Assembly: GCA_963539665.1 (NCBI GenBank)
Contig: CAUTOX010000002.1
Span: forward strand, 787 to 64,786
Source of the DNA: an uncultured Treponema sp.
Lineage (GTDB): Bacteria; Spirochaetota; Spirochaetia; Treponematales; Treponemataceae
DNA: 64,000 bases
Direction: 5' to 3'
The position numbers were made by a program, and so were the translations under genes. The number at the start of each line of letters is the position of its first letter. Position 1 is the stretch's first letter. Below the pieces are notes generated by a model that was not told the DNA's origin, searched no databases, and saw only the letters and a list, made by a program, of their open reading frames with translations. This document shows positions 1,626 to 63,120 of the stretch, piece by piece.

Positions 1626-3923
1626 ATGGAGGATAAGATGAAAAAAATCATTTCTTTCATCTCTTTTTTCCTGTTGCTTTCTGCGGCGGCAGTTGCGGAA
1701 ATTACAGCGAAAAAGACGGCTGACGGAAAGCTGGAAGTTACGTTCTTCTACGGCAATCCGCGTGCGGAACAGGTCTTGCTTGCGGCAGACTTTACCAATT
1801 TTAAAGACGGCGCCCTGCCAATGACCAAAACGGACAAGGGTTTTACGCTCACTCAGATTTTTGAACCGGGCGCATCGGTGAAATACAAGTTTATTGTTGA
1901 CGACAACTGGACAACAGACCTCCGTGCGCCGGACTTTGTTGACGACGGCTTCGGCGGTAAGAACAGCTTTGCCGAGTTGGATTCGCTGGTCGCTGATGCT
2001 GGCGGCGCGGACAAGGCAAAAGACTCCGCAGCGGACAAAACGGCAAAGAAAAAAGGCCCAAAGGTTCAGTTCCAGTCTTGGACGATGCTTGGAATGCAGA
2101 CGAAGTTCAGTACACAAGGAAAGTTCGACAAGGATGCCAAAATAGACGATAGAAATAAGAAAGTAACAAAAGCGGACAATGTTGCGCTTGGCTTCAAATC
2201 GTATAACAAATTGCTTGGCGACCTTACGGGCAATATGCCGTTTTTTATTGAACTTTCAGTTTCTGGAGAAGACTATGAAGATGCACATGTTAAGCTGTAT
2301 GACCGTACGCTCAGCAGTGGAGCAAATGCAAATCTGGTAAAAAGCAGCCTCGGACATCTTATCTCTGATCCTGTAATGTACCTTGCAAACGGCACAGAGG
2401 GAAACTGGAAGAATGAGCCAAAACTTGGCCACCTGAAATTCGGATGGAATACGCCGTATGTCAATTACACGACCGGCTATATCTATGCGAGGCTGCCGGC
2501 GCGGAAAGAAATCATTTGGAATACCATTGCCGATAACTGGGAAGCCGGATATGAACACGTCGGCGGTTACAATTTATTTGAAAACGGCGCAAAATGGCAG
2601 AAAATCGGCGATAACACGCTGAAAGTCGGCGTAAACTTCAATAAATCGGCCGACCGCAAAGGAAACAACTTCGGTTCTTATGCATTCGCAACATTTGACG
2701 CCAATATGTGGAAAATCGACGCGCAGTGGAATACGATGTTCGGAAGAGAATACCAGTTCTATAAGCCGGTTGAAAACGACATCATCATCGGTGCAAAAGC
2801 CAAAATTGCCGACGTTTCAATCGCGGCGCAGGGACTTATCGCTATCCACAATATGAAAACGGCCGACCTTGTTAGTGACCCTAAAAATGGCTGGAGCATC
2901 GCAGATGTCTTTGGTTATTCAACAGATGTATTCTATCGTTCCGGTAAATTTGACGGTATCGAAAATCTGGCAGGGAACATTACCGTTGGTTATAAGAACG
3001 ACAAGTTTAACGTAAATGCCGAATATCGGTTCCGCGGTATGGAAGCATCCATGCTCTATGTTCGCAACAACCATGATGACAACGATCACCGTATCCGCAA
3101 TATGCTTGGCTCAAAAAATACCCAGCAGGTAACGCTGAAGTTCGGCTTCAATCCGCTAGATGCGCTTTCACTCGGCTTAAAGACAAGCATGGAGACAGAA
3201 TTGAAGCATTACGGCACCAGTGCGTCTGATAATGAATTCGTCGGCAACGTTATGAGTTCTTTGCCTGCGGGATATAAAGGCGGAACCGATCCAACACTTT
3301 TGGATAAATTCGGTGCGGAATTCGGATTTACTCCATCCGCAACCTATAAATTTAATGACCTGCTCGGCTTTAAATCCTCTCTATACGCGTACGGAATTAT
3401 GAATTTCGCCTCATATAGAAAAAGAGGAGCATCGGCAGATTACGAATACAGCGCATCCGATAGTAAATTTGCATTTAAGTATGCAGGACTTGCATTCAAA
3501 TCTGAAAAGCTCAGCGATGTCGTAGAAGCTTTGGACGTATACTATGGCCTTGACAATTCAAAGAAAGACCTTCTCGGTAACACCTTGATTGCAAGAGTTG
3601 CGCTTCCGTTCGACATGGAAGTAACTGGCGGTATCGGAATCCGTTCCATCAAGAGTACAAAGGGCGGGAAAGACTACAAAAAAGATGCTTTGAACCCATT
3701 CGGCTTTGCCTTGGGCTTTGCAAAGAAACTGCAGGCTATCAAGTCACCGAAAGTATATGCACAATTCATGTGGAATATGGATATATATAAAGGATTTGGA
3801 GATGGTCCGACTGAGCTGAATCTTTCAAACGGCGCAAACCTCGGCAAATGGGAGTATACCAAAGGGTTGGATAAGTATGACGGCGCAGGTGCATTGCGCG
3901 TAGGCCTGCACTGGAATTTCTAA
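1626..3923 (+). CDS. Putative outer-membrane beta-barrel protein with an N-terminal CBM48/AMPK-beta-like (early-set) carbohydrate-binding domain
   Basis: Signal peptide (MKKIISFISFFLLLSAAAVA; the likely start is the ATG at 1638). The segment VLLAADFTNF...VKYKFIVDDNWTTD resembles glycogen-binding modules. A long region of alternating beta-strand-like sequence ends in LRVGLHWNF, a C-terminal aromatic residue typical of OMPs. Confidence 0.5.
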   Translation: MEDKMKKIISFISFFLLLSAAAVAEITAKKTADGKLEVTFFYGNPRAEQVLLAADFTNFKDGALPMTKTDKGFTLTQIFEPGASVKYKFIVDDNWTTDLRAPDFVDDGFGGKNSFAELDSLVADAGGADKAKDSAADKTAKKKGPKVQFQSWTMLGMQTKFSTQGKFDKDAKIDDRNKKVTKADNVALGFKSYNKLLGDLTGNMPFFIELSVSGEDYEDAHVKLYDRTLSSGANANLVKSSLGHLISDPVMYLANGTEGNWKNEPKLGHLKFGWNTPYVNYTTGYIYARLPARKEIIWNTIADNWEAGYEHVGGYNLFENGAKWQKIGDNTLKVGVNFNKSADRKGNNFGSYAFATFDANMWKIDAQWNTMFGREYQFYKPVENDIIIGAKAKIADVSIAAQGLIAIHNMKTADLVSDPKNGWSIADVFGYSTDVFYRSGKFDGIENLAGNITVGYKNDKFNVNAEYRFRGMEASMLYVRNNHDDNDHRIRNMLGSKNTQQVTLKFGFNPLDALSLGLKTSMETELKHYGTSASDNEFVGNVMSSLPAGYKGGTDPTLLDKFGAEFGFTPSATYKFNDLLGFKSSLYAYGIMNFASYRKRGASADYEYSASDSKFAFKYAGLAFKSEKLSDVVEALDVYYGLDNSKKDLLGNTLIARVALPFDMEVTGGIGIRSIKSTKGGKDYKKDALNPFGFALGFAKKLQAIKSPKVYAQFMWNMDIYKGFGDGPTELNLSNGANLGKWEYTKGLDKYDGAGALRVGLHWNF

Positions 3924-4005
3924 AACTCTTTTTATCAAACTAAACGCACTTGCAGTGTGCGCCGTAAAGCCAAATCGCTTGCGGCTCACGCTGTGCTAAC
4001 AAACA

Positions 4006-4037
4006 AAAGCAGTTGCCCCATGCGGCAACTGCTTTTT
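4006..4037 (+). terminator. Rho-independent terminator downstream of the beta-barrel gene
   Basis: AAAGCAGTTGCC (4006-4017), a 6-nt loop, GGCAACTGCTTT (4024-4035), running into a T stretch. Confidence 0.7.
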
Positions 4038-4399
4038 GCATTTATAGAAGAATTAGCCGCTGGCAGTTTTCGTAAATAAAATAAATACCGCTTTACCGAT
4101 GCTTTTTTGCACTCTGCCCCGCCCGCTCCAAGTTCCCCCACAAGAAAAAGCGCACCTTTAAGCAGTATTCTATATTCCTTACGCATACGGAATTTTATTC
4201 ACGCGGAGGCTACCCCGACACTCTGCGTCAAGGGGTTTTGATTGACAGCGCACTTTTTTACTTATAATATGGCGGCCAAACAAATGGGAAGAGAACAAAT
4301 TGAGCGAGTAATCCCGTGCGGCAGCGCACCGCACACCGTTCAAGACACTGCCGGAATGCGGCGTTTCCGTAAAATGCAGCGGCAGAGGAGGCGTCGAAA

Positions 4400-5161
4400 T
4401 TGTCAAGTTTTATCACATTGTGCTGTCTTTTTACCTGCGTTGCATGGCCTTCCTTCTTAAACACGCTCGCATATCCGCTCAACATCCGCTGGAGCCGGAC
4501 AATTTCGCAATACATTGTAAAAGTACTCGCTCCGCGCGTATTCGCCATTCTCACTTGCTATCGGAATTTTCATTTTTTTGCCTACAATGACAGCAAAAAA
4601 CTCCTGCCGGAACAGTTTATCATCATTTCGAACCATCAAAGCCTTTTCGACATTCCCGCTTACATGAATTTTTTGCGCAACAAGGAACTGCGCTTTGTCG
4701 CAAAAGACAACCTTGCGCGGCACATTCCGCTTGTTTCAGAAATGTTGCGCGCACAGGAACATTGCATGATACCCCGCCGCGGCAGTCCGATGCTTGCAAT
4801 GAAAGTTGTCGAACGGTTTGGCCAGCGAATCCGCGAGCGGAATCAAATTCCCGTGCTTTTTCCGGAAGGTACGCGCTCGCGAGACGGCAACGTCGGCCGG
4901 TTTTATTCTGCGGGATTCCGGAAACTCTCCGAAACGCTCAATCTGCCGGTTGCGGTATGCGCACTCGACGGCGGTTGGCGAATCCGCGACATCGGCAACA
5001 TCATGCGCCGCCTGAAAAACGGCTGCTACCGCATCAAGGTTGTGAAAATCTACCCCGCCCCGCAAACAAAAGAAGCGGCCGCTGCAATTCTTGAAGAAAG
5101 CCGCGCGCTCATTCAGCGGCAGCTCAATGAATGGCGTACGCTCGGAACAGATAAAAAATAA
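4400..5161 (+). CDS. plsC: 1-acyl-sn-glycerol-3-phosphate acyltransferase
   Basis: HX4D motif NHQSLFD and the FPEGTRSRDG motif. There is an N-terminal hydrophobic segment. The exact start is uncertain. Confidence 0.75.
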   Translation: MSSFITLCCLFTCVAWPSFLNTLAYPLNIRWSRTISQYIVKVLAPRVFAILTCYRNFHFFAYNDSKKLLPEQFIIISNHQSLFDIPAYMNFLRNKELRFVAKDNLARHIPLVSEMLRAQEHCMIPRRGSPMLAMKVVERFGQRIRERNQIPVLFPEGTRSRDGNVGRFYSAGFRKLSETLNLPVAVCALDGGWRIRDIGNIMRRLKNGCYRIKVVKIYPAPQTKEAAAAILEESRALIQRQLNEWRTLGTDKK

Positions 5162-5200
5162 CGCAGTACGCGCATCATCGTTCCGGCAATTCGGCTCTTT

Positions 5201-5752
5201 TTGATGCAGCGTCCAAACGAGGAAAATATGAACCGTTCGCCTCAGATTAGAACTGCGCTGCCGAGCGATTTACGGGCTATTCAGGAAATTTTTGCCCGCG
5301 CGCGCCGCTTTATGCAGCAGTCAGGCAATCCGAATCAATGGGAATCCGGCTATCCTTCCGACACCCTTATCCTGCATGACATCGTAGAACAAAATTGTTA
5401 TGCCATCGCATCCGGCGCAACCGTTTACGGCGTTTTTTCGCTGATTGCCGGCGCCGACCCGACGTATGCGGAAATAAACGGGGAATGGCTTAACGACGAG
5501 CCGTATGCAGCGTTGCACCGCGTCGCCGCCAGCGGTGAATCGAGCGGCATTTTTTCCGCCGCGGCGGCTTACGCAAAGACGCGCCACGACAATCTCCGCA
5601 TCGACACGCACCGCGACAACAAAATCATGCAGCATCTCATAAGCAAACACGGCTTCCGCTTTTGCGGCATCATCACAATCGAGAAAAATAATGTGCAGGG
5701 GAACAAAACAAGCGCACGGCTCGCCTATCAATGGAGCCGAACGGCAGACTGA
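5201..5752 (+). CDS. GNAT-family N-acetyltransferase
   Basis: 183-aa ORF. Its size and pattern (IRTALPSDLRAIQEIF..., HRVAASGESSGIF..., RIDTHRDNKIMQHLISKHGF) fit small GNAT acetyltransferases. Confidence 0.55.
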   Translation: MMQRPNEENMNRSPQIRTALPSDLRAIQEIFARARRFMQQSGNPNQWESGYPSDTLILHDIVEQNCYAIASGATVYGVFSLIAGADPTYAEINGEWLNDEPYAALHRVAASGESSGIFSAAAAYAKTRHDNLRIDTHRDNKIMQHLISKHGFRFCGIITIEKNNVQGNKTSARLAYQWSRTAD

Positions 5753-5785
5753 ATGCCCGTATATTTTAGCCGCTTGCATACTGCG

Positions 5786-6277
5786 CCGTCCGGTAGACTG
5801 CAATCGGGCAGGCAGACAGTCCGCCGACCGATCGCAATATCATCGCGGCAGCAACCGCCGGATATTCCTCCGTCCCGACCTGCGGCAACGCAGAGGCTCT
5901 TCCGCAAGCACGGAATGCTGCATCGCCAGACAAAAGCCAAACAGCACACACGGCAAGGTCGTGAGAGGTGCAAGGCGCATCATTAACAGCAAATCAGCCT
6001 CGCCCTCCGGTACACTGCAATCGTGCCGCTCGTCAACCAGCCGACCGATCGCAATGTCATCGCGGCCGAAACCGCCGGATATTCCTCCGTCCCGACCTGC
6101 GGCAACGCAGAGGCTCTTCCGCAAGCACGGAATGCTGCATCGCCAGACAAAAGCCAAACAGCACACACGGCAAGGTCGTGAGAGGTGCAAGGCGCATCAT
6201 TAACAGCAAATCAGCCTCGCCCTCCGGTACACTGCAATCGTGCCGCTCGTCAACCAGCCGACCGATCGCAATGTCAT
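5786..6277. repeat. Tandem repeat, 217-bp unit, about 2.3 copies
   Basis: The string CCGGTAcACTGCAATCG...GACCGATCGCAATgTCATCGCGGC recurs at about 5789, 6006 and 6223. ORF-track entries repeat with a 217-nt offset (5968 vs 6185). Confidence 0.85.
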
Positions 6278-52711: not shown

Positions 52712-52835
52712 TAGACCTGTTCGGAAACTTCAGTTTCAGAACAGGCTACCTTGAAATGCGATGTTCTAAATCGTGCTATTTGCGCGATTTAGAACTCGAC
52801 GACCTGTTCGATAACTCTGTTATCGAACAGGTCTA
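52712..52835. mobile_element. Full-length (124 bp) MITE-like element with TAGACCTGTTCG...CGAACAGGTCTA termini and three internal palindromes
   Basis: TAGACCTGTTCGGAAACTTCAGTTTCAGAACAGG / TTCTAAATCGTGCTATTTGCGCGATTTAGAA / GACCTGTTCGATAACTCTGTTATCGAACAGGTCTA. Related copies lie at 30489-30589, 19350-19403, 28486-28522, 63021-63057 and 15844-15881. Confidence 0.7.
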
Positions 52836-53143
52836 ATCTCTATTCTCCGCTGCCCAACAAATTTCGTTTGAACCTAGTTTTGCCGCATGATAAAACGAGC
52901 GCGGGCGGTAACTCCGTTGCGTCTTTCAAATACCTTTTTTCTCGTCCGTAAAAGTCCATTTTCCTCCAAACATATCCATAATAGCATGGTTGTGGATATG
53001 CTCGGGCAGACGGAAGTTCTGTTATGTCTTTTAAACACTCTTTTTACCGCCCGCCGTTCCCATGTAAAAAGATTTCGTTATTTTGACAACCGGCGGTTTT
53101 ATTTATAGAATGCGGCTTCATATGACAGTTTGTAGGCGGGAAA

Positions 53144-56216: not shown

Positions 56217-59210
56217 ATGAACGCTGCATTTGAAAATAACAGAGCGCAACTTTCACAGTTGACGGAATTATTTGAAAGGAATAAAAAGCAGTACAATACA
56301 TCGGCTTATGATGAAGCAAATACCCGTACCGATTTTATTGACAAGTTTTTTGAACTTTTAGGTTGGGATATAAGGAATGAACAAGGTTATTCTGAACAAT
56401 ATCGGGAAGTTGTGCGTGAAGACAAGGTAACGATAGCCGGAAGGGTGAAGGCTCCCGATTATGCCTTCAGAATAGGCAGGGTGAGGAAGTTTTTTGTAGA
56501 AGCGAAAAAGCCGAGCGTGAACATTAAAGATGACCTTGAGCCGGCGTTTCAGGTAAGGCGGTATGGGTACACGGCAAAACTCCCTTTGTGTATACTTACC
56601 GATTTTGAAGAATTTGCCGTGTACGACACCCGTATAAAACCTTCGCCTTCCGATAAACCAAGTACAGCCCGTATCTTTTACTGTACCTTCGATGAGTATC
56701 ATAAAAATTTCGATTTTATTTTTAACACTTTTTCAAAAGAAGCGATTTTAAAGGGCAGTTTCGATACCTATATTCAGGAGAACAAAAATAAAAAAGGCAC
56801 TTCCGAGGTCGACAAAGAATTACTAAAACTGATTGAAAGCTGGCGGACGGATATTGCAAAAAATATCGCACTGCGTAATCCTTCGCTCAATATTTATCAT
56901 CTAAACACTGCCGTACAAAAAATTATCGACCGCATCATTTTCTTGCGAATTGCGGAGGATAAAGAAATGGAAGAGTACGGACTTTTGCAAAAGATAACCG
57001 AAAGCGGCACAGTGTATCAAAAGCTGCAAGCTGTTTTTGACAGAGCTAATGCAAAGTACAATTCGGGACTTTTTAAACCGCATGACTGGCTCCGCAGTTT
57101 GACTATTGATGATGCGGTTCTTTCTTCTATTATAACAAGGCTTTATTACCCCGAATGTCCGTACGAGTTTTCTATTTTACCGGTGGAAATACTCGGCAAT
57201 ATTTATGAACAGTTTTTGGGAAAGATCATAAAATTCCGCAATATCGGAGGTCGACGTTTTGACGGGAGTCAAAACTCGGAGGTTTCGTCCGATAGGACGA
57301 ACACCCGACACACTGCGCTGATCGAAGAAAAGCCAGAGGTAAAAAAAGCCGGCGGTGTGTACTACACCCCACAATATATCGTCCGCTACATTGTAGAAAA
57401 TACCCTCGGCGTAAAAATAAAGGGGCAAAGCCCTGACGCTATTGCTCAGCTTAAAGTGGTTGATCCCGCCTGCGGTTCAGGCTCCTTTCTTGTTGAAGCG
57501 TATCAGCAGCTCTTGAATTATCATTTGGACTATTATTCAAGCGAAAAGGAGCAGAAGCTGGCTCTGAAAAAAAGCCGTATTTATGAATCAGGGCAAAATG
57601 TTTATAAACTCACTATTGAAGAAAAGCAGCGTATTTTGCTGAATAATATTTACGGAGTGGATATAGACGGTCAAGCTGTGGAAGTTACCAAGCTTTCGCT
57701 CTACTTAAAGCTGTTGGAAAATGAAGGGAGCGAAACGCAAGGGCAGTTATTTAAGTTTTCGGACATGAAGCTTTTACCCTCGCTCGATTCGAATATTAAA
57801 TGCGGCAATAGTCTTGTCGGTTCCGACTATTATAACGAAAAAGACGTAAGCCTTTTTGACGATGAAGTAATGCGGAAAATCAATACCTTTGACTGGGACA
57901 AGGAATTTCCGGAAGTCTTTGCTCAAGGCGGTTTTGACTGTGTGATTGGGAATCCGCCGTATGTGAACATCAGTGTATTTCCTGAACTGCACACATATTT
58001 GCAAATAACATATCCTATAATACACACAGGTTATAACGATTTGATGTATTATTTTATGTATCGCGGTATTGAGTTCTTAAAAGAAGATGGATTGTACGGT
58101 ATTATTACTTCAAATTATTTTTTGGGAAATGAATATGCGAAAAAATTACGAGTCTTTTTATCCGACAAGATTACCAAAATTTTAAATTTTAAAAATGCAA
58201 AAATATTTAGCGCAAATGTACATACTGCATTAGTATTTGCAGAAAAACATACAACAAATGACATCGATATTTTTACATATTCAAGCGATAAAGCTCCTGA
58301 TTCCGTAATTATAGAAAATGATTACTCATATATCACGATGAAAAGGAATACACTCAGTGAAGTATGGATTCTTGCCGATAGCAAAAAACAGCATGTTATT
58401 GACAAAATGAAAACAGATTCAATATATCTTGGTGATATAATGATTATCGAAAAAGGATCATCATCAGGTAAAAATGATATTTTTACAGTACCGCTTTCCG
58501 TTGCGGAAGAAGGTGCTTTTGAAAAAGACCTTATACGAAAAAATATAAAAAACGGCGATATTCATAGATACCGTTTAGAAAATAGGAAAACCGTTCTGAT
58601 TTATACAGATAACAAAACCGACATAAAAAAGTATCCGAATATTTATAAATATCTTTCAGCACATAAAAAAGAACTCAGCAACAGAAATGAGGTTTCAAAA
58701 GGAGCCTATGCATGGTATCGATTAGAGCGCCCTCGTGATAAAAATATTTTTGATGCAAAAGAAAAATTGATTGTCCCATATCGGGCAACACAGAATCGCT
58801 TTGCATATGATAATCAACAGTATTTCAATGACGGCGGTGATATCCGTGCATTAGTAATGAAAGAAAATATGCCTTTTAATATTAAATATCTACTGGTATT
58901 ACTCAACTCAAAACTACACAACTGGTATTTTGGCTTTATCGGTAAATCAAAAGGAAATACGCGGGAATATTTTAATAAACCTCTTGCAGAAATTCCCATA
59001 AAAACTATTTCACCGGAGGATCAAGCCCCGCTTATCACTCTTGCAGACCAGATGCTTGAAACGCAACGCAGATTGCAGCAAGCCCTATCCGATGAGGATA
59101 AAAAACTCTTGGAACAACGAGCGGCAATTATTGATAAGCAGATAGATAAGGCGGTATACCAGCTATACGGCTTAACGGAAGAAGAAGTGAAGATTGTGGA
59201 GGGGGAGTAA
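56217..59210 (+). CDS. Type IIG restriction enzyme / N6-adenine DNA methyltransferase (single chain: N-terminal PD-ExK nuclease, Eco57I-type gamma-class MTase, C-terminal specificity region)
   Basis: HsdR_N-like nuclease motif APDYAF...FFVEAKKP. Helical linker ILGNIYEQFLGK. AdoMet motif VVDPACGSGSFLVEAY. Catalytic motif VIGNPPYV. 997 aa. Confidence 0.85.
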   Translation: MNAAFENNRAQLSQLTELFERNKKQYNTSAYDEANTRTDFIDKFFELLGWDIRNEQGYSEQYREVVREDKVTIAGRVKAPDYAFRIGRVRKFFVEAKKPSVNIKDDLEPAFQVRRYGYTAKLPLCILTDFEEFAVYDTRIKPSPSDKPSTARIFYCTFDEYHKNFDFIFNTFSKEAILKGSFDTYIQENKNKKGTSEVDKELLKLIESWRTDIAKNIALRNPSLNIYHLNTAVQKIIDRIIFLRIAEDKEMEEYGLLQKITESGTVYQKLQAVFDRANAKYNSGLFKPHDWLRSLTIDDAVLSSIITRLYYPECPYEFSILPVEILGNIYEQFLGKIIKFRNIGGRRFDGSQNSEVSSDRTNTRHTALIEEKPEVKKAGGVYYTPQYIVRYIVENTLGVKIKGQSPDAIAQLKVVDPACGSGSFLVEAYQQLLNYHLDYYSSEKEQKLALKKSRIYESGQNVYKLTIEEKQRILLNNIYGVDIDGQAVEVTKLSLYLKLLENEGSETQGQLFKFSDMKLLPSLDSNIKCGNSLVGSDYYNEKDVSLFDDEVMRKINTFDWDKEFPEVFAQGGFDCVIGNPPYVNISVFPELHTYLQITYPIIHTGYNDLMYYFMYRGIEFLKEDGLYGIITSNYFLGNEYAKKLRVFLSDKITKILNFKNAKIFSANVHTALVFAEKHTTNDIDIFTYSSDKAPDSVIIENDYSYITMKRNTLSEVWILADSKKQHVIDKMKTDSIYLGDIMIIEKGSSSGKNDIFTVPLSVAEEGAFEKDLIRKNIKNGDIHRYRLENRKTVLIYTDNKTDIKKYPNIYKYLSAHKKELSNRNEVSKGAYAWYRLERPRDKNIFDAKEKLIVPYRATQNRFAYDNQQYFNDGGDIRALVMKENMPFNIKYLLVLLNSKLHNWYFGFIGKSKGNTREYFNKPLAEIPIKTISPEDQAPLITLADQMLETQRRLQQALSDEDKKLLEQRAAIIDKQIDKAVYQLYGLTEEEVKIVEGE
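57250..57305. repeat. Double-hairpin module inside the RM coding sequence (candidate in-frame repeat-element insertion)
   Basis: GTTTTGAC-GGGA-GTCAAAAC (57256-57275) and TTCGTCC-GATA-GGACGAA (57284-57301). The layout is the same as GTTTTGCC-GTA-GGCAAAA ... GGACG-GTA-CGTCC in the intergenic repeats. Confidence 0.55.
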
Positions 59211-59360
59211 TAATATTATGAGATATGATTATATGAATACAAAAAAACGATAACGGAAGATTTTAAACTATTAACAGCTCGTAATATAATAGATATTCTT
59301 GATGGTGATACAAAATTTGGTACATTTACATTTGAGAATGGCAAATATTTTGCAATTGCT

Positions 59361-60209
59361 ATGCCGTATTTAACAGGTCCAATGTTGTGTAGTATTTCAA
59401 CTCAATTCGGTCTTGCGGTTAGATACAATTTTGATACAACCAATGATAAAAAACAAAATAAAAGCAGATGGACATATCTAACTGATTTATTTGAATATTC
59501 TATTATGACCGGTTCTTGTTCAAATTTGCTATCATATCTTTTCGCACGAAAAAATTTTACAAATGAAACTTTTAAACAAAATATGAAAGATGATTCTTAT
59601 GGGTATCAAAATTATCAAGAGTTAGACGATAACGAAACTAATTATGCATACAAAATAATTATTGAACGAGTTATTAAAGAAATAAATGAATTATTAAAAT
59701 TTAGTCAAAAAGAACTCGCTATTGTATCAGATAATATTATTATAAAACCTATTACTGATGATATTAAAATTGAAACACCAAAAATAAAAAATATGGATGA
59801 TAAATATATTCAAAGTAAAGCTAACCAAGCTAAAGTTCATATCGAACAAGGTCAGTACGATACAGCCCTTACTCAAGCCCGCACAATATTGGAAGAAGTA
59901 TTTTGTTATGTCCTTGAAAGGAAAAATATAGAACCTATAGCAGCAGGAAAAATTGGAGAACTTTATAAACAAGTACGAGAAGTTTATAATATGCATATAG
60001 ATGATAATACTGATAAAAGAATAAAAAAATTATTATCGGGACTTAACACGATTGTTGATGCTATAGCGGAAATGCGAAATCAAATTAGCGATGCTCATGG
60101 ACAGGGTTCAAAAAGAAAAAGCATAAGAGATTATCATGCCCGACTCGCTGTTAATTCGGCTATTACGGCAGCAGAGTTTATTTTATCGGTATATGAACAT
60201 GCTACATAG
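59361..60209 (+). CDS. Abi_C-domain (abortive infection C-terminus) protein; the reading frame may begin at 59218 through a -1 shift at an A7 tract
   Basis: The C-terminus LSGLNTIVDAIAEMRNQISDAHGQGS...YHARLAVNSAITAAEFIL matches the Abi_C signature (RN..sdaHG). AT-rich. The in-frame open stretch extends upstream to 59229 without an ATG. Confidence 0.65.
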   Translation: MPYLTGPMLCSISTQFGLAVRYNFDTTNDKKQNKSRWTYLTDLFEYSIMTGSCSNLLSYLFARKNFTNETFKQNMKDDSYGYQNYQELDDNETNYAYKIIIERVIKEINELLKFSQKELAIVSDNIIIKPITDDIKIETPKIKNMDDKYIQSKANQAKVHIEQGQYDTALTQARTILEEVFCYVLERKNIEPIAAGKIGELYKQVREVYNMHIDDNTDKRIKKLLSGLNTIVDAIAEMRNQISDAHGQGSKRKSIRDYHARLAVNSAITAAEFILSVYEHAT

Positions 60210-60222
60210 CATAAAACTGTAA

Positions 60223-60350
60223 CAAGCCCTATCCGATGAGGATAAAAAGCTCTTGGAACAACGGACGACAATTATTGATAAGCAGATAGATAAGGCGGTA
60301 TATAAATTGTATAATTTAGCGGAAGAAGAAGTAAAGATTGTGGAGGGGGA
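60223..60350. repeat. Diverged direct copy (offset 1144 bp) of the last 128 bp of the RM gene (59079-59206)
   Basis: CAAGCCCTATCCGATGAGGATAAAAA.CTCTTGGAACAACG...ATTATTGATAAGCAGATAGATAAGGCGGTATA...GAAGAAGAAGT.AAGATTGTGGAGGGGGA is present at both sites. The second copy would encode ...QALSDEDKKLLEQRTTIIDKQIDKAVYKLYNLAEEEVKIVEGENDY*. Confidence 0.85.
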
Positions 60351-60352
60351 AA

Positions 60353-62626
60353 ATGATTACTGAAATTACGATGAAAAATATCGCGACTTATAATAATATT
60401 GGTGTTAAACTTGAGGGATTAAAACGGCTCAATTATTTTTTTGGAAACAATGGTTCCGGAAAATCTACAATCGCAAAATATTTGCAATCGCTTGTAATAG
60501 GTGATCCGGAAAATAAATATTCATCATGTTCAAAAGAAAATTATAACCCTATGCAGGAAGAAATTCTTGTGTTTAACCAAGATTTTGTCGAGAGAAATTT
60601 TAGGCAAAGCCAAGTCCTAAAAGGTGTTTTCTCATTAAATCAAAAGAATGCTGAAATTGATAAACAAATAAAACTAAACGAAGAAAGTATTTCAAACAAA
60701 CGTAGAACAAAGAATGACATGGAAGAAGAGAATAACATACTTGATCAGCAAAACAATCAACTTAAAACAGAATTAACAAAAAAATGTTTTAATAAAAGAA
60801 ATGTTTTTAAATCTTTTTCAAAAATGAGACTTGATCATTCAAAGAATATGAAAAATAATTTAGAACAAGTTGAAAAAATCATTCAGAATAATAGTATTGT
60901 AAAACCAGACTTTAGTACCCTAAATGATTTATATAAAAAGCTTTATGAAGATGATTTAAGCAGTATTGATGTTTTACTTGATATACAATTATTTGATGAG
61001 TTATTGCAAAAACATAATGAACTATCAGTATTGTTGCAAGAAATTATTATAGGTAAAGAAGATGTACAATTAGCAAAATTGATAAATGAATTTGGTTTAA
61101 AGTCTTGGGTTGCGCAAGGTAAAACATTTCTTGAGAAAACAAAGACTGTTTGTCCGTTTTGTCAAAAAGAAACGATAGACAATGATTTTATTTCGCAATT
61201 AAATGATATTTTTGACGAATCGTCAAAACAAAAGATAGACAAAATAAAAAGTGAAAAAATCATTTATGAGAATACATTCAAAAGGGTTTTGCAAAATATT
61301 CAAGCCGTATATGAAAAATACAATGTGAAAAACATTGTTTCAAATCTACAAATGAGCTTAAAAACCATTTATGATATTAACTTAAAAATAATAAGTGATA
61401 AAATCAATGCACCGAATGAAAAGAAAGCACTTGATGATATAACAGAATCATTTAAAAATATACTATTACAAATTAATAAGGAAATAGAAAATAATAATAC
61501 TCTTGTCAACTCTCTTGATACTCAAAAAGAGTCTTTAGAAAAACAAATATGGGATTACATTGCTCTTGACTGCAAAGATGATATTCTAAAATATCAAGAA
61601 GAGACTAAATCAACTACTGAAATTATTAATAAAAATAAAACTGGAATTGCGAGACTACTAGCGGAAATACAACAATTAGAACAAGAAAATGCTACACTAA
61701 GAGATAAAACTGTTAATACTACAGAAGCCGTTTATAATATAAATAAAATTTTGGAAAACTCCGGCTTTATGGGTTTTAAAATTTGTGAACAAACTAAAGA
61801 AAATAACATCTCCCAATATTATTTATCAAGAAATTCGAAAACACGTGAAGGTAATATATTTAATAGTTTGAGTGAAGGAGAGAGCAATTTTATTGCATTC
61901 TTATATTTCTACCAACTTTGTTTAGGTACTACGGATATTCAAGAAGGTTCTGAAAAAAAGAAAATAATTGTTATCGACGACCCTGTTTCAAGTATGGATA
62001 GCCAAGTATTATTTATCGTTTCAACATTAGTAAACAGGTTAATAACATATAAAGGCAGGAGCGGAGGAGAAAAAAAGGAGTTTCTAAATGGAAACATTGA
62101 ACAAGTTTTCATATTAACTCATAATTATTACTTCTATAAAGAAGTTGCAATGCAAAAACGACCTATATGTAAATCCCAACAGCATTATCTAATCGAAAAG
62201 AATGCGATTAATGAGTCATACATAAAATTGCGTGAATATAAAGAATACGATGACTATGCATTAATGTGGCAAACAATAAAAGAAGCAAAAGAAAAATTAT
62301 CTGATGACAATAAAGAACAAAATATTCTCCTGGCGAATTTATTTAGACGTATTTTAGAAAGCTATGCTAACTTTATAGGGCTTGGTACGGATTCTTGGGC
62401 AACTATTCTGGCGGATAATGACAAAGATAGTATGGAACATCATTTGAAAACTGCTTTTATTTCAATGATCAATGATGAAAGTCACAAAGTTTCGCCATTT
62501 GATAATTTTTATTTTCAAAAGATTCATAATGCTAATCCATCAAAGTTGTTTGAAGTATTTGAATCAATCTTCAATACTATTGGTAAAGAGCATTACGATA
62601 GGATGATGGAACCCAATAAATTATAA
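60353..62626 (+). CDS. AAA_13-family ATPase with coiled-coil CxxC hook and a PrrC/RloC-like C-terminal region (candidate anticodon nuclease)
   Basis: Walker A FFGNNGSGKSTI. Long coiled-coil segment with VCPFCQ. Walker B/D-loop IIVIDDPVSSMD. H-loop ILTHNYYF. C-terminal LFRRILESY...(37 aa)...NDESH resembles the PrrC/RloC Arg-Glu-His arrangement. The start is taken at the ATG at 60353. Confidence 0.7.
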   Translation: MITEITMKNIATYNNIGVKLEGLKRLNYFFGNNGSGKSTIAKYLQSLVIGDPENKYSSCSKENYNPMQEEILVFNQDFVERNFRQSQVLKGVFSLNQKNAEIDKQIKLNEESISNKRRTKNDMEEENNILDQQNNQLKTELTKKCFNKRNVFKSFSKMRLDHSKNMKNNLEQVEKIIQNNSIVKPDFSTLNDLYKKLYEDDLSSIDVLLDIQLFDELLQKHNELSVLLQEIIIGKEDVQLAKLINEFGLKSWVAQGKTFLEKTKTVCPFCQKETIDNDFISQLNDIFDESSKQKIDKIKSEKIIYENTFKRVLQNIQAVYEKYNVKNIVSNLQMSLKTIYDINLKIISDKINAPNEKKALDDITESFKNILLQINKEIENNNTLVNSLDTQKESLEKQIWDYIALDCKDDILKYQEETKSTTEIINKNKTGIARLLAEIQQLEQENATLRDKTVNTTEAVYNINKILENSGFMGFKICEQTKENNISQYYLSRNSKTREGNIFNSLSEGESNFIAFLYFYQLCLGTTDIQEGSEKKKIIVIDDPVSSMDSQVLFIVSTLVNRLITYKGRSGGEKKEFLNGNIEQVFILTHNYYFYKEVAMQKRPICKSQQHYLIEKNAINESYIKLREYKEYDDYALMWQTIKEAKEKLSDDNKEQNILLANLFRRILESYANFIGLGTDSWATILADNDKDSMEHHLKTAFISMINDESHKVSPFDNFYFQKIHNANPSKLFEVFESIFNTIGKEHYDRMMEPNKL

Positions 62627-62648
62627 TTACAAAAGGAGGAGTCCGATT

Positions 62649-63001
62649 ATGTCTTATGAACCAGTTATTGAACAAGTAAAAATGCTGCCGGAGCCGCTAT
62701 TGGCTTCCTTAAAATTCACCGCTACAGGAAGTTTGAACTTCCGAAAGCGCTGAATTGGTGTGCGCAAGCACACATATAAATAGGCGATGTTTTGTATTTT
62801 TGCAAAACTCGCGTTTAAGTTGAACGACTTTATCTTAGTCGTTCAACTTAAACTATAGTGACAGCTTTTATCAAATTGCTTGAAGCAGAGCAAGGTTGTG
62901 TTACGGGAAATTATACCAAGCAAGCATTCTTTGCATTAGCAGGGAAAATCCATCTTGACCAAGATGCAGTAACCGAATTACGCGAGGCAAGATTGATATG
63001 A
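62649..63001 (+). pseudogene. Disrupted antitoxin gene (DUF2281/VapB-like), split by an insertion of about 150 bp
   Basis: A good RBS (AAGGAGG) precedes MSYEPVIEQVKMLPEPLLASLK. After the multi-hairpin insert (about 62716-62866) a different frame reads ...FIKLLEAEQG...FALAGKIHLDQDAVTELREARLI*. The stop overlaps the next ATG (ATGA). Confidence 0.45.
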
Positions 63002-63024
63002 TTTTGGTAAACACGAATATTAAA
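62998..63024 (+). pseudogene. Stub of a PIN-domain (VapC-like) toxin gene, truncated by a MITE
   Basis: MILVNTNI is a typical VapC N-terminus (MxLxDTNI). The frame runs straight into the element at 63021-63057 and stops. Confidence 0.4.
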
Positions 63025-63057
63025 CCTGTTCGGAAACGCAGTTATCGAACAGGTCTA
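63021..63057. mobile_element. Minimal MITE copy (termini only)
   Basis: TAAACCTGTTCGGAAACGCAGTTATCGAACAGGTCTA is the left and right termini of the 52712-52835 element joined together. Confidence 0.6.
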
Positions 63058-63120
63058 TTATCATAGACTTTTGGAATAATCCTACAGCTGCTGTTGGAAA
63101 AAAACATTGGCTCTTGACTA

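Follow-up and report, generated by a model that had tools for sequence, protein, structure and literature searches.

Remnants of a type IIG restriction-modification gene at the seams between defence genes in a gut Treponema and its relatives

We describe a defence island in a 64,000-nucleotide stretch of DNA (the window) from an uncultured gut Treponema sp. (contig CAUTOX010000002.1 of GCA_963539665.1, an assembly of 2.36 Mb in 180 contigs). Between 56.2 and 63.1 kb, the window carries a type IIG restriction-modification (RM) gene, an AbiJ-type abortive-infection gene, an AAA_13 ATPase gene of the candidate defence family PDC-S06 and a decayed antitoxin/PIN pair, in DNA of low GC content (23-45% vs about 50% in the flanking genes). 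A second copy of the 3' end of the RM gene, here called an orphan tail, stands between AbiJ and AAA_13. We think it probable that the island belongs to a modular defence hotspot that works without an integrase, in which the RM tail would act both as a translational-coupling adapter for the gene behind it and as a homology arm for recombination. This reading is built on the repeat in the window, on relatives in which the RM gene directly precedes AAA_13, on a natural series of loci with zero, one and two cassettes, on breaks in homology that fall at the tails, on the reassortment of RM alleles with cargo genes, and on arrays in which similar tails separate other cargo. The features of the island are as follows.

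56217-59210, plus strand: type IIG RM gene of 997 amino acids (aa), with an HSDR_N/MmeI_N nuclease, an Eco57I/MmeI methylase, a TaqI_C specificity domain and a conserved C-terminal tail (Pfam, PADLOC).
59031-59210, plus strand: conserved RM tail, about the last 60 codons (...LADQMLETQ...VKIVEGE, then the stop), following the hypervariable low-GC specificity block (alignment, GC profile).
59074-59206, plus strand: repeat copy 1, the functional 3' end of the RM gene (repeat search, alignment).
59158-59177, plus strand: polymorphic patch of copy 1, in the QLYGLT form; its partner in copy 2, at 60302-60321, has the KLYNLA form.
59218-60209, plus strand: AbiJ-type abortive-infection gene with an Abi_C/HEPN C-terminus, frameshifted (Pfam Abi_C, 3.5e-23; PADLOC AbiJ, 7.7e-75).
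60218-60350, plus strand: repeat copy 2, the orphan RM tail, with an open frame of 46 codons at 60223-60363 that lacks an ATG start (repeat search, alignment).
60342-60355, plus strand: GGAGGGGG, a Shine-Dalgarno sequence contributed by the final codons of the tail, with AAA and the AAA_13 start codon ATG coming next (read from the sequence).
60353-62626, plus strand: AAA_13 ABC-type ATPase of 757 aa with a CPFC hook, in PADLOC candidate defence family PDC-S06 (Pfam, PADLOC).
62637-63066, plus strand: decayed antitoxin/PIN pair, the conserved right arm of the variable region (homology, open reading frame fragments).

The two tail copies form a direct repeat of 133 nt without gaps at an offset of 1144 (59074-59206 and 60218-60350), and are identical at 116 of 133 positions (87%, or 88% when trimmed to the 128 nt delimited in the first-pass annotation, which had estimated 85-90%). 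They are the only copies found by a DNA search of the whole assembly (E 1.5e-41 for the second copy, E 0.16 for the next match). The repeats do bracket the Abi_C gene, as had been claimed: the RM stop lies at 59208-59210, the next ATG at 59218 and the Abi_C stop at 60207-60209, and repeat homology picks up again at about 60214-60223, that is, 5-14 nt past the end of the Abi_C frame. The AbiJ frame is the sole sizeable open reading frame (ORF) between the copies, and its only Pfam match is Abi_C. Copy 2 still reads as an RM C-terminus (QALSDEDKKLLEQRTTIIDKQIDKAVYKLYNLAEEEVKIVEGENDY, then the stop), in keeping with the first description. The TGA of its frame is at 60361-60363 rather than 60359-60361, and its overlap with the AAA_13 ATG (60353) is 11 nt rather than 9 nt. 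The 9-nt overlap had also been taken as the ancestral coupling geometry, and this too needs correction: intact loci use an ATGA overlap or a start codon two bases past the stop (stop+2), and the frame of copy 2 runs 11 nt into AAA_13 because the window remnant (GGGGGAAAATGA) has lost a base relative to the ATGA type (GGGGAAAAGATGA) of a related locus, L051.

Mismatches between the copies are clustered, with 10 of the 17 in a single patch of 19-22 nt (permutation p = 0.0009); outside it the copies agree at 107 of 114 positions (94%). The patch of copy 1 matches the RM tail of locus L043 at 18 of 19 positions, that of copy 2 matches the tail of L040 at 17 of 19, and a KLYNLT form, near the KLYNLA of copy 2, is found in both the RM tail and the orphan tail of L113. 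Given that both patch forms also occur in RM-gene tails elsewhere, the two copies derive from two RM alleles. Duplication in place followed by decay was rejected on this ground. The AT-rich codons of the copy 2 patch, at first interpreted as decay, were instead inherited from another RM allele. Orthologous orphan tails stand at the same junction, on the 3' side of AbiJ, in L010, L042, L113 and L119. A separate observation concerns copy 1: in a comparison over 59092-59238 it is only 71-75% identical to the RM tail of L113, while the RM sequence just 5' is 89-90% identical and the AbiJ 5' end just 3' is 94% identical, a pattern that resembles a tail-sized conversion patch.

Direct coupling of an RM gene to AAA_13, which the first-pass annotation had proposed as the ancestral state, exists in close relatives. 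Among loci with close relatives of the AAA_13 protein (81-89% aa identity), taken from genome and metagenome collections, L043 has an intact RM ORF of 1055 aa (2831-5998) that ends in TAG, with AG separating this stop from the ATG of AAA_13 at 6001. Its AAA_13 is 82% identical to that in the window, and the 5' 1.8 kb of its RM gene is 86-88% identical at the nucleotide level. The same TAG-AG-ATG arrangement is found in L041, and an ATGA overlap leads into AAA_13 in L040, L051 and L048. A single tail is joined directly to AAA_13 in L043, L040, L041 and L051, so the repeat is single-copy at the uninterrupted site.

Loci with and without intervening genes also occur within one lineage, whose three members are 92-98% identical to each other in nucleotide sequence:

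L051, no cassette: RM1-tail-AAA_13.
L010, one cassette: RM-tail, AbiJ, tail, AAA_13.
L042, two cassettes: RM1-tail, genes for 301-aa and 165-aa proteins, tail, AbiJ, tail, AAA_13.

Two of the tails of L042 (tail_a and tail_b) are 86% identical to each other, and tail_b is 98% identical to the RM-gene tail of L010. These relations are explained more simply by displacement of an RM gene than by insertion with target duplication. The 301-aa and 165-aa pair (L042, 3244-4621) lies between two RM tails; the 165-aa protein looks membrane-spanning from its sequence, and neither protein had a Pfam, PADLOC or NCBIfam match. The pair is a candidate for an unnamed defence module.

The layout of the window (RM, AbiJ, tail, AAA_13) recurs in further samples as L119-L123, where the orphan tail is annotated as a 46-aa gene. 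This recurrence bears on whether the arrangement could come from a metagenome-assembled contig misjoined at the repeat. Such an artefact is conceivable in a 180-contig assembly, and we find it hardly credible here, since L010, L042 and L119-L123, assembled independently from other samples, have the same gene order.

A single insertion with long target duplication is another possible origin of the repeat. In this scenario AbiJ would have inserted after the RM stop of an RM-AAA_13 locus, with about 133 bp of target duplicated, and the copies would later have diverged, or copy 1 would have been overwritten by exchange of the RM allele. Direct repeats of more than 30 bp that flank the insert exactly, their single-copy state at cassette-free loci, orphan lengths that vary by cassette type and the 94% identity outside the polymorphic patch are all consistent with it. 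However, published repeats of this kind are 93-100% identical and have RM genes as the insert, whereas here the identity is 87% and the insert is AbiJ, and the divergent patch represents two pre-existing alleles rather than random decay. The tails of L042 would moreover require two events (duplication in place and an RM swap) compared with one for displacement, and the process covers only the founding event and not later reassortment. We consider it quite improbable as the explanation of the locus.

Comparison of whole loci places breaks in homology at the tails. The RM gene of L096 is 92-94% identical to that of the window over the whole gene, and homology ends at 59209; a KAP NTPase gene comes next in L096. 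The window is collinear with L113 over 56271-60350 (RM, tail, AbiJ and orphan tail; 85.7% identity). The shared sequence stops with the final base of copy 2, past which L113 has a pair of genes for 274-aa and 150-aa proteins, a third short tail and a TIR-STAND gene. Homology with L010, L119 and L042 covers 59088-62707, from a point inside copy 1 to beyond AAA_13. The AbiJ/tail junction is common to the window, L010, L042, L113 and L119 and therefore arose once, and the RM gene ahead of it has been exchanged, as the match to L096 shows. The two possibilities raised in the first-pass annotation, that a cassette entered or that the RM gene was replaced, thus both took place.

Similar differences are seen among loci with other cargo. 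The orphan tail and KAP gene of L085 are 93% identical to the RM tail and KAP gene of L097, and the two loci differ by a PDC-S42 gene. L113, L114, L116 and L118 carry a TIR-STAND gene (PDC-S60) that L115 and L117 lack. Homology between loci breaks at tails, and the same RM specificity allele is found with different cargo, as is the same cargo with different RM alleles. The suggestion that the tail segment is an exchange site for accessory defence genes is supported by these breaks, by the loci with zero, one and two cassettes, by the other cargo that follows the same RM-AbiJ-tail block in L113 and by arrays in many related genomes. The locus plan is an RM gene (conserved 5' part, variable specificity block and conserved tail), variable cassettes split by tail copies, and a conserved right arm. 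Members of the RM family share a conserved 5' 1.8 kb and a conserved tail (roughly the last 130-180 nt), on either side of a hypervariable specificity block; among RM alleles, nucleotide homology returns at 59016-59040, past the unalignable specificity region.

Two further observations concern these loci. The 274-aa and 150-aa pair of L113 (7129-8407) lies behind the AbiJ orphan tail and is a second candidate for an unnamed cassette, with no PADLOC match and no Pfam match on record. The RM gene is split into at least two frames in several relatives (L040, 1855-4403; L096; L113 and L120) and intact in sister contigs (L115 and L118, 992 aa); an inactivated RM gene with intact downstream cargo seems to be common.

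A survey of relatives for RM-AAA_13 pairs with and without an intervening gene, and for other cargo between such repeats, had been proposed in the first-pass annotation, and all of these states were found. A 60-aa tail query had matches in 79 of 401 genomes of the family. By our count, about 20 tail matches at E <= 1e-6, in about 15 genomes, lie in frames of fewer than 150 codons, and the short-frame tails examined have a full RM gene 1-3 kb upstream in the same orientation. The cargo seen includes PDC-S42, PDC-S32, PDC-M68A/B, PDC-S49 (KAP), bSEFIR, SIR2-HerA, TIR-STAND (PDC-S60) and a type II RM pair, in arrangements such as the following:

L082 (a single-contig genome): RM, PDC-S42, tail, SIR2 and HerA, right arm, half tail.
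L084: RM with the specificity block of the window (94% aa identity), PDC-M68A/B, tail, SIR2 and HerA.
L085: RM, PDC-S42, tail, KAP (PDC-S49).
L086: RM, PDC-S32, tail, bSEFIR.
L083: RM, gene for a 319-aa protein and bSEFIR.
L088: RM, gene for a 337-aa protein, tail, C5 methylase and HATPase (weak match to a type II restriction enzyme).
L048: PDC-S42, tail, AAA_13.

Counted from the stop, the 5' ends of the orphan tails vary between about -78 and -17 codons, and each cassette type has a characteristic junction (about -43 codons for AbiJ and about -60 for PDC-S42). One junction per cassette type suggests a few founding events followed by spread. A partial AAA_13 (71% aa identity; L012/L037) lies on a contig titled Bacteroidaceae, the same contig being genome G190 of genus g1, and a 38% identical copy (L011) lies beside a YhcG-type nuclease on a Paludibacteraceae contig. 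These copies may reflect transfer across phyla, or mis-binned contigs.

The array layout, with an anchor gene followed by gene-plus-repeat units, raises the question of site-specific, integron-like cassette recombination, with an attachment site in the tail and a dedicated recombinase. No match to a recombinase family was found among the ORFs scanned in the window island, L042 and L043. The tails are unstructured: DNA folds of both copies on both strands gave z scores of -0.42 to +0.43 relative to shuffled sequences, and the candidate of an attC-like structure in the tails was rejected, as they fold no better than shuffles. The 5' ends of the orphans vary as described above, and crossover points differ between comparisons. 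Given the unstructured tails, the lack of a recombinase match in those ORFs and the variable junctions, we regard site-specific recombination as highly unlikely.

The end of the tail may also matter for expression. The RM tail ends in GTG GAG GGG GAG and a stop (GTGGAGGGGGAG plus the stop codon), and since this end is a Shine-Dalgarno site, a gene that starts within a few bases of the stop would be translated by coupling. The same motif precedes the start codon of the next gene in most of the tail junctions read. At about 22 of 28 junctions, many of them orthologous and so not independent, the start codon that follows falls within a range from 11 nt inside the tail stop to 7 nt past it (as TAG/ATG, ATGA or stop+2). 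Where AAA_13 occurs without an RM gene (L009, L029 and L039), the tail has decayed and contains stops, and GGAAGGGGAG before the ATG is its best-kept part.

It could be argued from this that the remnant owes its retention mainly to selection for a leader, consisting of a ribosome-binding site and either a small translated upstream ORF, which would bring in ribosomes by coupling, or an internal promoter, and that its role in recombination is incidental. The geometry of Shine-Dalgarno sequence and ATG is kept at most of the junctions, and its preferential survival in decayed remnants without a nearby RM gene fits as well. The orphan of L048 is an ATG-started ORF of 53 codons (MLETQ...) with an ATGA overlap with AAA_13, several orphans keep the frame open from the methionine of the conserved DQM motif, and copy 2 contains a TAGATA-17-TATAAT site at 60287-60315. 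On the other hand, copy 2 of the window lacks an ATG and begins after the DQM codon, the copies of L010 and L042 are frameshifted and that of L113 has an internal stop, and promoter-like matches are at chance level. Selection as a leader also does not account for the homology breaks at the tails, and we think it unlikely to be the main reason why they persist.

In the history that we favour, AAA_13 was once joined directly to an earlier RM allele, an arrangement still seen in relatives, and copy 2 is the tail of that allele. The arrival of an RM-AbiJ unit upstream would then have left the old tail in front of AAA_13, where it carries the ribosome-binding site of that gene and may have been retained for it. 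The homology arms for ordinary homologous recombination, presumably of the RecA type, would be the tail copies, the conserved 5' part of the RM gene and the antitoxin/PIN right arm. With a donor consisting of RM 5' part, specificity block, tail, cassette and orphan tail, the left crossover could fall in the RM body or the conserved 5' part and the right crossover between the orphan tail of the donor and the tail of the recipient, so that a cassette would be gained and the downstream gene of the recipient kept. Crossovers between tails could also delete a cassette or exchange the gene behind a tail. Once a unit of cassette and orphan tail exists, ordinary homologous recombination could account for all later events. 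The founding junctions would need an illegitimate step, either displacement of the resident RM gene through homology-facilitated illegitimate recombination or an insertion with long target duplication. No trio of donor, recipient and product for any founding junction was found among the compared loci.

Several points weigh against this interpretation. The 'empty sites' are empty relative to the island and are not at the same chromosomal position, given that the flanks outside 56.25-63.1 kb are common to no compared locus. Not every polymorphism ends in a tail: the segment that is absent in L115 relative to L113 extends to the right as far as the tsaD flank. Independent founding events seem to be few, with one characteristic cassette/tail junction for each cassette type. 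Translational coupling at the tails is suggested by the geometry of the junctions alone, and a promoter scan gave 30 sites where 24.8 were expected, so that the promoter-like site in copy 2 is no better than chance. Most of the compared loci are metagenome contigs or metagenome-assembled genomes, and assemblers can misjoin at repeats; arrays are also found in five single-contig genomes (G125, G083, G149, G086 and G053).

A bolder version of our proposal, which we hold only tentatively and consider doubtful as it stands, is that the RM tail has been selected as an integrase-free universal adapter for defence genes and does three jobs. It would encode the last helix of the enzyme; its Shine-Dalgarno sequence and stop would express, by coupling, any gene that lands behind it; and as an orphan it would provide a portable right homology arm, so that units of cassette and tail could be copied into any RM locus of the family while the cargo of the recipient is kept. 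If so, Treponema and its relatives would have, in their type IIG RM genes, 'integrons without integrase' that build multi-layer immunity, and the PDC-S06, S32, S42, S49, S60 and M68 families would be regular cargo of such RM loci.

The genes of the island deserve some further description. The RM gene matches PADLOC REase_MTase_IIG (PDLC03604, E 1.6e-199) over its full length, and it combines a nuclease, a gamma-class N6-adenine methylase (Eco57I/MmeI_Mtase/N6_Mtase) and TaqI_C in one chain, as expected for type IIG. The PADLOC match of AbiJ covers residues 10-324, a full-length AbiJ including the Abi_C C-terminus. Its reading frame is not intact in the window, where a run of seven A (59241-59247) replaces the eight found in the closest intact relative, L113 (whose ORF starts MNTKK); this costs the gene its start and leaves a frame that is open from 59229 and has no in-frame ATG before 59361. 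The shortened run could reflect a pseudogene, a phase-variable switch or an assembly or sequencing error. In L010, L042 and L119 the AbiJ ORF is intact and has a different 5' end. The protein matched no specific NCBIfam family, and a PDB sequence search gave no match. AbiJ homologues in the genomes of the family amount to one 48%-identical copy at a contig end (G148), which is uninformative.

The AAA_13 protein matches its Pfam family over residues 10-740 (1.4e-114) and PDC-S06 at 4.1e-180, and CPFC is present in the translation, in line with the RloC form, in which an N-terminal ABC ATPase holds a coiled-coil insert and a Cys-x-x-Cys zinc hook. PADLOC gave only PDC-S06 models and a weak LmuB match, with neither PrrC nor RloC, and there was no NCBIfam family and no PDB relative by sequence search. 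No tail remnant accompanies the distant homologues (30-34% identity), whose neighbours are N6_N4 methylases, SNF2/DUF4391 and McrC-like genes; these neighbourhoods show a general linkage to RM only.

Homology to the right arm resumes right after the last cargo gene in L084 (96%), L096, L083, L085, L087, L043, L041 and L048, and the segment 62637-63012 of the window is common to many loci at this position. L038 keeps both genes of the antitoxin/PIN pair intact, and L043 has an intact PIN gene. In the window both are damaged: about 150 nt (62708-62856) that L043, L041 and L048 lack interrupt the antitoxin, and PIN breaks off at a palindromic repeat after about 8 codons. A palindromic element of 37-39 nt (ACCTGTTCGATAAC...GTTATCGAACAGGT) has copies at 52801-52840 and 63019-63062 that are 85-86% identical and 10.2 kb apart, one upstream of a parC-like gene and one where the island ends on the right; L042 and L050 show a further copy. 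In L038 (1-3274), a unit of decayed tail and AAA_13 lies between the intact antitoxin/PIN pair and a second, partial pair, and therefore the right arm can be duplicated too. A half tail lies beyond the right arm in L083, as it does in L082.

Defence islands are known as mosaics. To our knowledge, how new defence genes come to be stacked beside old ones without the machinery of mobile elements is mostly unexplained. In the loci described here the seams are visible, given that a leftover RM tail marks each junction and that natural variants with zero, one and two cassettes exist, and they offer a concrete and testable mechanism for modular immunity. Orphan RM tails provide a simple sequence signature for finding unnamed defence cassettes, and the present comparison supplies candidate anti-phage genes in the 301-aa and 165-aa pair, the 274-aa and 150-aa pair and the PDC families.

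In the literature on RM and defence loci we found analogues of this arrangement, and no account of RM tails that punctuate defence cassettes. One analogue concerns AAA_13: like the suicide nucleases PrrC and RloC that are linked to RM systems (PMC2610378), it is an ABC-type ATPase with a Cys-x-x-Cys hook (the RloC form) encoded beside an RM enzyme; unlike them, it is placed by PADLOC in the candidate family PDC-S06, with no PrrC or RloC match. Integrons share the ordered stack of promoterless cassettes behind one anchor, each delimited by a repeat. They differ in that the loci studied here have no integrase match among the scanned ORFs, no folded attC-like site and variable junctions, and in that the repeat is coding sequence of the anchor itself.

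RM gene complexes of Helicobacter and other bacteria have been reported to insert with long target duplication (Nobusato et al. 2000; Furuta et al. 2010, PMC2853133), with repeats of 46-423 bp that are 93-100% identical; the latter study also reports specificity-domain substitution in a type IIG gene. There, as here, long direct repeats flank the insert exactly, no mobility gene is involved and the repeat is single-copy at the empty site. In those cases, however, the RM genes (R and M) are the insert and the repeats are near-identical, whereas in the window it is the 3' end of the RM gene that is repeated, a single AbiJ gene forms the insert and the copies represent two alleles (87% identity), and units can occur in series.

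The closest likeness may be to the orphan arrays of rhs, cdiA and type VI secretion system (T6SS) effector genes, which have been explained by 'C-terminal displacement' or 'sequential displacement' (Jackson et al. 2009; Kirchberger et al. 2017, PMC5361080). Homology-facilitated illegitimate recombination, with one homologous anchor and a join at microhomology, has been proposed for T6SS effector arrays and rhs (PMC5361080). Those arrays likewise have a conserved anchor and a variable downstream part, and incoming modules displace older ones, which keep a 3' fragment of the anchor; arrays grow in some strains, and complex arrays spread by homologous recombination with no integrase. An anchor followed by modules that are each preceded by a 3' fragment of the anchor is what we find in the window, L042, L082-L088 and L113, and the number of modules differs between related strains (zero, one and two in L051, L010 and L042; TIR-STAND in L113 vs L115; PDC-S42 in L097 vs L085). 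Here, in contrast, the anchor is an RM enzyme, the cargo consists of anti-phage defence genes and candidates rather than toxin tips and immunity genes, and the retained fragment appears to double as the ribosome-binding adapter of the next gene. What is new is that the formation of orphan arrays by displacement and recombination is applied to defence genes behind a type IIG RM gene, whose own tail would be both the seam and the adapter.

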